The notes below the pieces were generated by a model. That model was not told the origin of the DNA. It saw nothing but the letters and a program-made list of their open reading frames with translations, and ran no database searches. A DNA stretch of 64,000 bases. Origin: an uncultured Thermoleophilia bacterium. GTDB taxonomy: Bacteria; Actinomycetota; Thermoleophilia; UBA2241. The translations under genes and the position numbers were made by a program. The stretch covers positions 6,187-70,186 of the forward strand of contig CAIOZS010000103.1 of the NCBI GenBank assembly GCA_903862845.1. The letters are read 5' to 3'. Shown one piece after another: positions 41,547 to 43,220 of the stretch (position 1 is the stretch's first letter; every line of letters begins with the position of its first letter).

Positions 41547-43220
41547 ATGGCATTGAATCAGGATATGGCGAGACTGGCCGCGGAGATCACCGGGGCTTGG
41601 GATGTGCGGACGACGGCGATCGCCGGCATCCGCATTGACACCGCCGAGCAGTTGGCCGGCTTCCGCGAAGACCGTGCGGCTATGGCCGAAGAGCAGAACG
41701 AGCGGCTCAAGGCTGAGGCCGCGGCAATGAGAAGCGACGTCGCCGGCTTCATGGACGACCTGGCTGCCGGCAGCGCGACGCGCAGCGAAGATGTTGCCGC
41801 CACGCTCGACGACCACGCTACGGCACGCGCCGAGATGGGTCGCGAGCAGGACGCGCGGCTGAAGGCAGACGTCGCGGCTATCAAGAGCGACGTCGCCGAT
41901 ATGCTTGGCGACGACGCTACGGCACGCGCCGAGATGGCCCGCGAGCAGGATGCACGGCTCAAGGCGTACGTCGCGGCAGTGAAGAGCGACGTCGCCGACA
42001 TGCTGAGCGATCTGGACGAGGCTCACGCGGCCATGGCCCGCGAGCAGGACGCACGGCTCAAGGCCGACAACGCGGCGATGAAGAGCGACGTCGCCGACAT
42101 GCTGAGCGATCTGGACGAGGCTCACGAGGCAATGGCCCGCGAGCAGGACGCACGGCTCAAGGCCGACAACGCGGCGATGAAGAGCGATGTCGCCGGCTTC
42201 ATGGACGACCTGGCCGCCGGCAGTGCGGCGCGCAGCGAGGATGTTGCCGACATGCTCGACGACCATGCTACGGCACGCGCCGAGATGGGCCGTGAGCAAG
42301 ACGAGCGCCTCAAGGCATACGTCGCGGCGGTGAAGAAAGACATGGCCACGATGCTGAGCGATCTTGACAAGGCTCACGCGGCCATGGCCAGCGAGCAGGA
42401 CGACCGGCTCAAGGCTGAGGTAGCGGCAATGAAGAGCGACGTCGCCGATCTCATGGACGACCTGGCCGCCGGCAGTGCAGCGCGCAGCGAAGACGTGGCC
42501 GCCACACTCGACGACCATGCCACGGCACGCGCCGACATGGGCCGAGAGCAGGACGAACGGCTCAAGGCGTACGTGGCGGCAGTGAAGAGTGACATGGCCG
42601 CCTTGCTGAGCGATCTGGACGAGGCTCATGCGGCGATGGCCGACGAGCAACGAGCCAAGCTGTCGGAGGACCGCGAGCGTTTGGCGGCCGACGGGGCGGC
42701 AGACCGAGAAGAGCGTCAAGACGACGTCGCCGGCCGCAAGGCGGGCTGGGCGAAGGTCGCCACCGCCATGGACAAGCGCCGTCAGCGTGCCGCCGCGGCC
42801 AAGGGCCGCAAACGGCCTGCGGCAGCCAAGCCCGTGGCGAAGGCTCCCGAACCAAAGCCCGTGGTGAAGGCTCCCGAACCGAAGCCCGAGCCCGTCGCCG
42901 TGGTTGCCCCGCCCGAGCCCAAGCCCGAGCCCGTCGCCGTGGTTGCCCCACCCGAGCCCAAGCCGGAGCCCAAGCCCGAGCCCAAGCCCGAGCCCGTCGC
43001 CGTGGTTGCCCCACCCAAGCCCGTGCGTGACGATCTCACGCGCATCAGGGGCATCGGCGAAGGCATGCAGGCCCGCCTGAACGAGCTCGGCATTCACTCG
43101 TTCGCGCAGCTCATAGCGGCCAACGTCCCCAAGCTCCGCGAGGGACTGGGCGACGTAGGGCGCATGGCGCGGATCGACGAATGGATCGACCAGGCCCAGG
43201 ACTTCTCTGAGTCTGAGTAG
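41547..43220 (+). CDS. Repetitive coiled-coil protein with about seven 33-residue repeats (some with a 17-aa insert), EPKPEP linker and a C-terminal helix-hairpin-helix-like domain; sits in the GvpC position
   Basis: Repeats (R/S)EQD(A/E)RLKA(D/Y)(V/N)AA(V/M)KSDVADMLSDLDEAHAAMA. DNA 99-bp tandem units are nearly identical (42001-42099 versus 42100-42198). C-terminus LTRIRGIGEGMQARLNELGIHSFAQL. Confidence 0.7.
   Translation: MALNQDMARLAAEITGAWDVRTTAIAGIRIDTAEQLAGFREDRAAMAEEQNERLKAEAAAMRSDVAGFMDDLAAGSATRSEDVAATLDDHATARAEMGREQDARLKADVAAIKSDVADMLGDDATARAEMAREQDARLKAYVAAVKSDVADMLSDLDEAHAAMAREQDARLKADNAAMKSDVADMLSDLDEAHEAMAREQDARLKADNAAMKSDVAGFMDDLAAGSAARSEDVADMLDDHATARAEMGREQDERLKAYVAAVKKDMATMLSDLDKAHAAMASEQDDRLKAEVAAMKSDVADLMDDLAAGSAARSEDVAATLDDHATARADMGREQDERLKAYVAAVKSDMAALLSDLDEAHAAMADEQRAKLSEDRERLAADGAADREERQDDVAGRKAGWAKVATAMDKRRQRAAAAKGRKRPAAAKPVAKAPEPKPVVKAPEPKPEPVAVVAPPEPKPEPVAVVAPPEPKPEPKPEPKPEPVAVVAPPKPVRDDLTRIRGIGEGMQARLNELGIHSFAQLIAANVPKLREGLGDVGRMARIDEWIDQAQDFSESE

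Follow-up and report, generated by a model that had tools for sequence, protein, structure and literature searches.

A repeat protein encoded between gvpA and gvpN in a Thermoleophilia gas vesicle cluster, a probable remote member of the GvpC family with an adaptor-like C-terminal domain

The window analyzed here, that is the whole stretch of 64,000 nucleotides taken from contig CAIOZS010000103.1 of an uncultured Thermoleophilia bacterium (assembly GCA_903862845.1), has a G+C content of 68% and carries a complete gas vesicle (gvp) gene cluster, located by Pfam and NCBIfam matches at 41.1-57 kb. Besides gvpA, gvpN, an Hsp20/GvpH gene, gvpF, gvpG, gvpO, gvpK, a GvpJ-like gene and GvpL/F genes, this cluster includes a gene for a long repeat protein, which is probably a highly divergent, shell-binding member of the GvpC family. 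A preliminary description of the DNA had called the protein GvpC-like by position and period, and both traits are found again: the gene sits between gvpA and gvpN in a complete cluster, and this position is kept throughout the family described below. The open reading frame (ORF) at 41547-43220 is present as it had been described, with 557 residues, a third-codon-position G+C content (GC3) of 0.82 and an AGGAGG sequence 5' of its ATG. The C-terminal spacer and helix-hairpin-helix (HhH)-like domain that had been proposed were both recovered, by a library match and a fold model. The gene, its parts and gvpA are laid out as follows.

41188..41412, + strand: gvpA, major gas-vesicle shell protein (Pfam PF00741 Gas_vesicle, E 5e-16; NCBIfam GvpA NF006874, 126 bits for a cut-off of 100).
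41535..41540, + strand: Shine-Dalgarno sequence AGGAGG, 6 nt 5' of the ATG, invariant in the related contigs L004 and L005.
41547..43220, + strand: whole coding sequence with an ATG start, for the probable divergent GvpC-family protein of 557 aa.
41547..41687, + strand: conserved N-terminal segment, aa 1-47, with the family signature MxxAxDMxxLxExIxxSYxxRxxAxxxLxxxTxxxLxxF.
41688..42641, + strand: repeat array of eight units, aa 48-365.
42642..42800, + strand: degenerate ninth unit, Trp401 motif (AGWAKVATAMDKRR) and start of a basic patch, aa 366-418.
42801..43031, + strand: disordered Pro/Glu/Lys/Val spacer of ~75 aa, aa 419-495 (predicted local distance difference test score, pLDDT, below 50 at 420-494).
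43032..43217, + strand: C-terminal (HhH)2 domain, aa 496-557.

The repeat gene starts 134 bp 3' of gvpA, whose ORF counts 74 aa (71 aa in the public assembly call). Beyond the array, Trp401 is near-invariant (at least 90% conserved in family alignment A2), and the basic patch spans residues 409-440, crossing into the spacer. The DNA of this spacer is made of its own 27- and 39-bp tandem repeats (Tandem Repeats Finder rows 42828-42888 and 42859-42971). At 42828-42971 it encodes 13-aa PEPKPEPVAVVAP units, and the version found in the homologue P0001 is shorter and different; spacer length may thus vary between relatives, as repeat number does.

The array contains eight full units, starting at residues 48, 99, 132, 165, 198, 249, 282 and 333, and a degenerate ninth at residue 366. 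Their order, 51-33-33-33-51-33-51-33 aa, amounts to five 33-aa and three 51-aa units. The preliminary description had counted about seven repeats, two of them with a 17-aa insertion; the long units are in fact three, and their extra segment measures 18 aa. The 33-aa period that it had read is borne out by the unit starts and by Tandem Repeats Finder, which reports a 99-bp period at 41822-42195 (3.8 copies, 87% matches, score 472) and a 252-bp period, equivalent to 33 + 51 aa, at 42032-42649 (2.5 copies, 82%, score 845). The array is rich in alanine and aspartate, with a net charge of -35. Each unit displays hydrophobic residues at Leu7, Val11, Val/Met14, Val/Met18, Met21, Leu22, Leu25 and Met32, with a 3-4 spacing over 26 residues, and this hydrophobic stretch is followed by a polar REQDAR segment.

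At the DNA level, the adjacent units 42001-42099 and 42100-42198 are mismatched at 5 of 99 nt, in keeping with the few differences noted before. Between the other pairs of 33-aa units, 9-31 of 99 nt are mismatched and 4-10 codons differ synonymously; pairs of 51-aa units are mismatched at 22-23 of 153 nt. The earlier wording of near-identical 99-bp repeats therefore suits one adjacent pair and is overstated for the others, and only one duplication in the array looks recent. The 51-aa unit itself is best read as an old, family-wide unit type rather than as a recent insertion in this protein, because it is widespread in the family and the 51-aa units of the window align to those of the family without gaps.

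Unit number was compared among contigs of increasing divergence. Contigs L001 and L002 were recovered from other samples; their DNA is 99.9% identical to that of the window and contains the eight-unit array unchanged. At least three independent metagenomes, all representing the same population, agree in this array. In L004, with a GvpA 100% identical, a GvpN 92% identical and a nucleotide identity of ~85%, the array has two units; in L005, where GvpA is 95% identical (94.6%), it has three. Since eight, two and three units accompany GvpA proteins that are 95-100% identical, the number of units is seen in these alignments to shift from one close relative to another against a constant shell protein. 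The recent expansion and the proneness to repeat-number variation that had been proposed for the locus are hence upheld in part: the variation among relatives agrees with them, but the array is invariant within the population and, because most units carry many synonymous differences, most of the expansion does not appear to be recent. In cyanobacteria, vesicle width and collapse pressure are reported to be correlated with the number of GvpC repeats (Dunton and Walsby 2005, cited through PMC9372576). That unit number would give a tunable vesicle strength in the present case is a reasonable inference by analogy. A further relative, L006, has gvp genes ~86% DNA-identical to those of the window, and its contig begins inside the spacer of its own copy (positions 1-275). 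This break implies that short-read assembly failed in or just after the array, and that repeat numbers in the metagenome-assembled genomes of this group would often be missing or unreliable.

The repeat protein belongs to a large family. A first homology search with the full protein, in which 8000 candidates were scored, returned nine matches, of which P0001, P0002 and P0005 seeded the family. P0001 (74% identity, 313 aa) possesses one 51-aa and one 33-aa unit, P0002 (44% identity) three 33-aa units, and P0005 (26% identity) 51-aa units and a winged-helix C-terminus in place of the HhH domain. The first four homologues, these three among them, are all encoded after gvpA (4/4). An exhaustive profile search with the N-terminus and two units reached 831 cluster representatives at E <= 1e-3, 236 of them at E <= 1e-10, and the alignment runs from residue 1 in nearly all of the 150 family matches listed. 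A word-indexed search with a 29-sequence N-terminal alignment returned nine short fragments only. A genome scan with the window protein alone returned one true relative (L006, an Actinomycetes metagenome-assembled genome) and one match confined to the HhH domain. No match was obtained by tblastn against plasmids with the window protein or with a family member; annotated GvpC genes were reached there with a gvpN query. Among the 153 sequences analyzed (152 representatives and the window protein), 126 are repetitive, with a best self-period of 33 aa in 43 representatives and of 51 aa in 39.

Distant branches of the family are recognizably related to the window protein. A profile of 38 members that are neither of the HhH type nor detectable with phmmer from the window protein gives the latter 134.7 bits, for shuffled sequences at 5 bits or less. 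Its first domain, over residues 1-121 of the window protein, scores 59 bits, and the profile aligns the 51-aa units of the window to those of the family with no gaps. Scanning metagenome contigs with a distant subfamily yielded 80 loci. Where at least 1.3 kb of upstream DNA was available, 40 of 42 loci had gvpA upstream in the same orientation; where the contig extended at least 3.5 kb beyond the match start, gvpN and a DnaJ-type zinc-finger gene were found downstream in 31 of 31. Linkage to gvp genes is thereby a trait of the family in these proportions, contrary to the unlinked occurrence that the preliminary description had named as grounds for refuting its reading, and the family was set apart on that ground from phasins or other generic amphipathic coat proteins, a candidate that was rejected.

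Between gvpA and the distant-subfamily member lies a family paralogue of ~220-270 aa with the same N-terminal motif. Examples among loci L008-L087 and others are found at 5176-5941 of L012 and at 1839-2501 of L003. Many clusters thus seem to carry two tandem GvpC-like genes, and the window one. In public sources, family members go under the names "hypothetical protein", "YicC" or "flap-endonuclease-like nuclease". The proteins encoded between gvpA and gvpN on three plasmids were also considered: that of Octadecabacter matches the 268-aa gene described below and not the repeat protein, that of a Methylosinus plasmid scores 12 bits, marginal membership at best, and that of a Spartinivicinus plasmid falls outside the family.

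The relation to GvpC was assessed with profiles in both directions. The curated models PF01304 and TIGR02641 cover the 33-aa repeat only, and a full-length cyanobacterial GvpC profile was therefore built from the sequence of Anabaena P09413, which is 100% identical, over the aligned regions, to database proteins carrying PF01304. Run on the 153 family sequences, the resulting hidden Markov model (HMM) gives at least 20 bits to 17 of them and at least 15 bits to 29, the top scores being 48.7, 47.2 and 37.0, against a maximum of 6.2 bits when the family sequences are reversed or shuffled. The alignments are collinear, GvpC positions 1-122 falling on family positions 7-128. In the opposite direction, the family HMM gives 53.1 bits to the NCBI-annotated GvpC of Nostoc sphaeroides (6.1 when reversed, 3.9 at most in 200 shuffles), and HMMER drops exactly 18 columns of the family 51-aa unit to fit the 33-aa GvpC repeat. 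With hhalign, family and GvpC are aligned N-terminus to N-terminus with P 4e-4 and a probability of 35%; the column-shuffle control is noisy (maximum 132; the real score was equalled or exceeded in 3 of 200 shuffles), and this link was judged on the reversed-sequence and HMMER controls instead. One family member, P0097, passes the curated TIGR02641 (19.6 bits, cut-off 18.8). The statement of the preliminary description that the sequence is unrelated to GvpC is contradicted by these reciprocal matches of 30-53 bits, for controls of ~6 bits or less, and by P0097. From these comparisons the repeat protein is read as a remote homologue of GvpC rather than as a product of convergence, and the GvpC-like assignment is upheld and raised from analogy to remote homology.

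The conserved residues of the GvpC repeat, Leu4, Phe11, Leu12, Arg19, Leu30 and Phe33, occupy a single face of the helix (Huber et al. 2023, PMC9994262). When the window repeat is set by eye in the GvpC register, guided by the alignments, position 4 is Val/Met/Ile, 11 is Met, 12 is Leu, 19 is His/Arg, 30 is Leu and 33 is Asp/Tyr/Glu. In this by-eye register, two to three of the six residues are retained, two positions show conservative replacements, and one residue is lost.

Several observations weigh against a GvpC-family shell protein. At E <= 0.1, the matches listed for the window protein include neither PF01304 nor TIGR02641; PF01304 lies outside the 25 most frequent of the 66 Pfam families matched by 67 members, and is absent from the lists shown for ten further members. 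Run directly on the window protein, the cyanobacterial GvpC HMM gives 6.5 bits, which is noise level. Phe11 and Phe33 are replaced, by Met and by Asp/Tyr/Glu, respectively; the helical region is very acidic (net -35); and the fit of the 18-aa step to the shell lattice, detailed below, is approximate. The link between the window protein and GvpC is hence transitive, through family members, and as such well supported by the profile comparisons.

The AlphaFold2 model of the protein (mean pLDDT 72) comprises helices at 2-75, 83-229 and 234-418, a disordered region at 419-495 and a compact helical domain at 496-556. The helix breaks coincide with the Gly-containing AAGSA segments of two of the 51-aa units. 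Over the array, the hydrophobic moment is highest at 98.2 degrees, equivalent to 3.67 residues per turn. In Anabaena, one 33-aa GvpC repeat (49.5 Å) has been inferred to span four GvpA subunits, spaced 12.1-12.7 Å along the rib (Huber et al. 2023, PMC9994262). By the same reckoning, a 51-aa unit (76.5 Å) would span six subunits (72.6-76.2 Å), the eight-unit array ~38 subunits, and the whole helical part ~50; the 18-aa step measures 27 Å, for 24.2-25.4 Å over two subunits. By analogy with known GvpC proteins, the protein most likely lies along the GvpA ribs, outside the vesicle, and stiffens the shell. Its helical units would run along the ribs on the vesicle exterior, as in Anabaena, and binding through the repeat region would stiffen the shell, as shown for the GvpC of Anabaena and Serratia, with unit number probably tuning vesicle width and collapse pressure. 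The proline-rich spacer would then hold the (HhH)2 domain off the vesicle surface as an adaptor, for which DNA would be the most likely partner by analogy with PhaH, another protein being a serious alternative.

The C-terminal domain has relatives of several kinds. Residues 472-555 match positions 148-233 of the 234-position PhaH model NF045508 (29.4 bits, E 8e-7); the N-terminal parts differ, so that the score stays below the whole-protein cut-off of that model (250 bits). The predicted structure (pLDDT 82) is an (HhH)2 fold, best matched by the N-terminal domains of RadA/Rad51, by NusA AR1 and AR2, and by the HhH domains of Pol X, UvrC and DisA. In sequence, the module is the one that also forms C-terminal extensions of alphaproteobacterial NuoE, L21 and S2, and the C-terminus of the Caulobacter phasin PhaH. 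Across the 153 sequences, the C-termini fall into (HhH)2 domains (28), winged helices with MarR-like matches (58) and Lys/Arg-rich histone-like tails (at least 13), the rest being mostly fragments; HU-like domains also occur.

What this tail binds can be argued either way. Polyhydroxybutyrate (PHB) granules are tied to the nucleoid by the histone-like tails of PhaM and PhaF and, in Caulobacter, by the HhH domain of PhaH, each with its N-terminus on the granule and its C-terminus on DNA, without sequence specificity, as summarized in a 2025 review (PMC13052382). By analogy, DNA is tentatively put forward as the partner of the window tail, and a gas-vesicle-to-nucleoid tether is plausible. It is likewise possible, although doubtful, that the GvpC-like proteins of most non-cyanobacterial clusters are bifunctional, with repeats that would coat the vesicle and a swappable C-terminal DNA-binding module that would tie it to the nucleoid. 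If so, the tether would space the vesicles and divide them among daughter cells, in the way that PhaH, PhaF and PhaM act on PHB granules. It would also be the first system described by which gas vesicles are positioned or inherited; they go unmentioned in the 2025 review of bacterial organelle positioning (PMC13052382).

The points that speak against a DNA tether favor a second reading, in which the (HhH)2 domain is a protein-protein module that recruits assembly factors of the GvpN/GvpO type or links vesicles, the helical part still being a GvpC. The fold matches cover DNA-binding and protein-binding (HhH)2 domains alike, and (HhH)2 domains such as NusA AR2 bind proteins. The domain of the window is mildly acidic (net charge -2 to -4), closer to the protein-binding NusA AR2 than to a typical DNA binder; all segments matched by the HhH profile have a mean charge of -2, and C-terminal domains range from -7 to +5. 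NuoE, L21 and S2, which carry the same module, are parts of large protein assemblies, and the C-terminal domain of haloarchaeal GvpC binds GvpN, GvpO and other Gvp proteins (PMC9372576). On the other side, PhaH, the closest studied inclusion-coat bearer of the module, is reported to bind DNA non-specifically in the account given by PMC13052382, and the Lys-rich histone-like, winged-helix or HU-like tails of other members are hard to square with one common Gvp partner. The protein-adaptor role is accordingly regarded as a possibility about on a par with the DNA tether, each held tentatively.

The next alternative bears on the repeats themselves, which might be a mere functional analogue of GvpC, amphipathic repeats having converged on a 33-aa period that fits the GvpA lattice. 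Such convergence would account for the silence of the curated models and the noise-level direct score, and alanine-rich helical repeats are prone to spurious similarity. An apolipoprotein A1/A4/E match (PF01442, 29.1 bits, well under its cut-off of 90) is a matter of shared 11-residue amphipathic periodicity only. Moreover, GvpC-like proteins need not be detectably alike: the GvpC of Halobacterium salinarum scores 4.6-5.6 bits with the family HMMs, with a higher bias, which is no similarity, and shows none to the cyanobacterial GvpC profile either. The family-GvpC matches are nevertheless reciprocal, of low bias and collinear from the N-terminal non-repeat segment onward, and reversed and shuffled controls stay at about 6 bits or below; one member satisfies a curated NCBI model, and the window protein is itself firmly tied to the distant members by its 134.7 bits. 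Plain analogy is therefore considered unlikely, and homology to GvpC is retained.

A third possibility is that the protein acts mainly as a DNA-binding regulator or nucleoid-associated protein of the gvp cluster, its coiled coil serving for oligomerization, and is not a shell component. The DNA-binding-like character of the family C-termini, be they (HhH)2, MarR-like winged helix, HU or Lys-rich, and the 3-4 hydrophobic spacing of the units, typical of coiled coils, would suit such a role. However, the DNA binding of (HhH)2 domains and Lys-rich tails is not sequence-specific, genes for a histidine kinase and two response regulators, conserved in L004, already lie directly upstream, the repeat gene occupies the structural gvpC slot after gvpA and is homologous to a known shell protein, and a repeat number running from 2 to 8 would be unusual for a regulator; this role is quite improbable. 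Lastly, although high-GC DNA yields long shadow ORFs on both strands and the assembly of the related L006 breaks within the repeat gene, the reading of the locus as a non-coding or mis-assembled repeat, or as the shadow of a true 833-aa gene on the minus strand at 41409-43910, is effectively refuted, and both the opposite-strand ORF and an assembly artefact were rejected: GC3 is 0.82 on the + strand and 0.74 on the - strand, the Shine-Dalgarno sequence is strong, the 557-aa product recurs among the gene calls of at least three independent assemblies (two of them 99.9% identical in DNA), homologues with this architecture number in the hundreds, and the family, present as a single copy in the window, is matched by its profiles in the + frame only.

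The remaining features of the cluster and its surroundings are listed here in order.

37878-40979, directly upstream of gvpA: GAF/PAS histidine kinase, single-domain response regulator and OmpR-type response regulator.
41441..41485, + strand: stem-loop in the spacer between gvpA and the repeat gene, followed by CCUCUUUGAU (RNA fold; arms conserved in relatives).
43444..44250, + strand: unknown 268-aa gene between the repeat gene and gvpN, conserved in relatives.
44250..45266, + strand: gvpN (AAA+; NCBIfam TIGR02640, 385 bits).
After gvpN and before the Hsp20/GvpH gene: two small unknown genes.
46040-46633: Hsp20/GvpH gene (Pfam/NCBIfam).
46649-47683, between Hsp20 and gvpF: M48-like gene of 344 aa (marginal Peptidase_M48 match, 21.0 bits, cut-off 20.3).
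47676-49058: gvpF, gvpG and gvpO (Pfam/NCBIfam).
49106-49501 and 49541-49900: two adjacent small genes with DnaJ-type CXXCXGXG zinc fingers.
49958-52096: CDC48-family double-AAA ATPase, inside the gvp cluster.
52111-53154: GvpL/GvpF domain fused to a C-terminal DnaJ J-domain (Pfam, E 2e-55 and 5e-9).
53374-54606: GvpJ-like ORF of 410 aa, with a GvpA/J-type Gas_vesicle domain at residues 96-134 and an uncertain start codon.
3' of the GvpJ-like gene: gvpK, then another GvpL/F gene.

The spacer between gvpA and the repeat gene is strongly structured, the RNA fold of 41405-41555 reaching -79.7 kcal/mol for -56.7 +/- 3.9 kcal/mol in shuffled sequences (z -5.8). Both arms of the stem at 41441-41485 are conserved in L004, and largely so in L005; a second hairpin occurs in the same spacer at 41498-41519. 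A simple terminator scan made no terminator call for the 41441-41485 stem-loop, which is possibly a partial terminator, an attenuator or an RNA-stability element, and through partial termination or a stabilized transcript could determine how strongly gvpC is expressed relative to gvpA.

Neither Pfam nor NCBIfam gave a family for the 268-aa gene, whose counterparts in L004 and L006 show 88-90% identity to it. It overlaps the start of gvpN (the longest gvpN ORF begins at 44124, and the public call in L001 near 44247), and is homologous (86 bits) to WP_245581592, a hypothetical protein encoded just upstream of gvpN on plasmid pOA238_160 of Octadecabacter arcticus. As this homologue adjoins gvpN, the gene is assigned, by homology and position, as a conserved and unnamed gvp-cluster gene. 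The DnaJ-type zinc-finger gene, a homologue of which accompanies gvpN 3' of the GvpC-like gene in 31 of 31 distant-subfamily loci, looks like a conserved, undescribed gvp accessory gene. A CDC48-family ATPase is present too in the plasmid cluster of Methylosinus sp. C49 (L089). The fusion of GvpL/F with a J-domain hints at Hsp70 recruitment in vesicle assembly. The GvpJ-like ORF possesses a long C-terminal extension with weak GRAM and Vps36-like matches. Upstream of gvpA, the kinase and the two response regulators, found in the same order in L004 at 72-74% identity, likely regulate the gvp cluster.

GvpC is a handle for tuning or decorating gas vesicles, in ecology, where collapse pressure is set against depth, as well as in engineered acoustic reporters. 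In this respect, the locus reveals what would be a very large unannotated branch of the GvpC family outside cyanobacteria. The correspondence of 33- and 51-aa units with about four and six GvpA subunits provides a testable rule for register on the shell, and the recurring DNA-binding-like tails suggest a route to the positioning and inheritance of gas vesicles.

Among known systems, the cyanobacterial GvpCs of Anabaena flos-aquae (P09413) and Nostoc sphaeroides (WP_118171794) are also encoded between gvpA and gvpN. They share with the window protein a short conserved N-terminal segment followed by tandem 33-residue α-helical repeats, a reciprocal profile similarity at the family level and a repeat number that differs between close relatives. 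In contrast with them, the window protein escapes the curated repeat models, mixes 33-aa with 51-aa (33+18) units, is very acidic and alanine-rich, and does not keep Phe33 and Phe11. Its Trp motif, basic patch, proline-rich spacer and (HhH)2 domain are missing from cyanobacterial GvpC, and with 557 aa it is threefold longer (164-193 aa). Outside cyanobacteria and archaea, a GvpC role has its best experimental precedent in the GvpC of Serratia sp. ATCC 39006, encoded after gvpA1 and before gvpN, the deletion of which cuts collapse pressure threefold (PMC4982088); no DNA-binding-like tail is reported for it in that paper. Haloarchaeal GvpC (Halobacterium salinarum pNRC100, WP_010890518) resembles the window protein by its gene order, gvpA-gvpC-gvpN-gvpO, and its strong acidity. 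It has less regular repeats of 32-40 aa and a distinct C-terminal domain acting as an interaction hub (PMC9372576); this domain, however, is another, cysteine-containing module, and the sequences are not detectably similar. GvpU of Bacillus megaterium, the sole spatial organizer of gas vesicles found described, clusters vesicles by phase separation (bioRxiv 10.1101/2023.06.01.543273), a different mechanism, and is described for clustering and not as a nucleoid tether.

In overall design, parallels are found among proteins of other inclusions. PhaH of Caulobacter crescentus, PhaF of Pseudomonas putida, PhaM of Cupriavidus necator and AlgP of Pseudomonas aeruginosa, as they are presented in PMC13052382, follow the same two-part plan, with an N-terminal amphipathic inclusion coat and a C-terminal non-specific DNA binder, the latter putative in the window protein. 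The Lys-rich histone-like tails of sister subfamilies resemble those of PhaF, PhaM and AlgP. Unlike PhaH, the window protein has a GvpC-like N-terminal part of 418 residues, is linked to gvp and not to pha genes, would have the gas vesicle as its cargo, and bears a mildly acidic HhH domain. Set beside all these systems, its sequence brings as new traits the mixture of 33- and 51-aa units, an extreme divergence from the curated models and a predicted adaptor tail shared with a nucleoid-tethering phasin.

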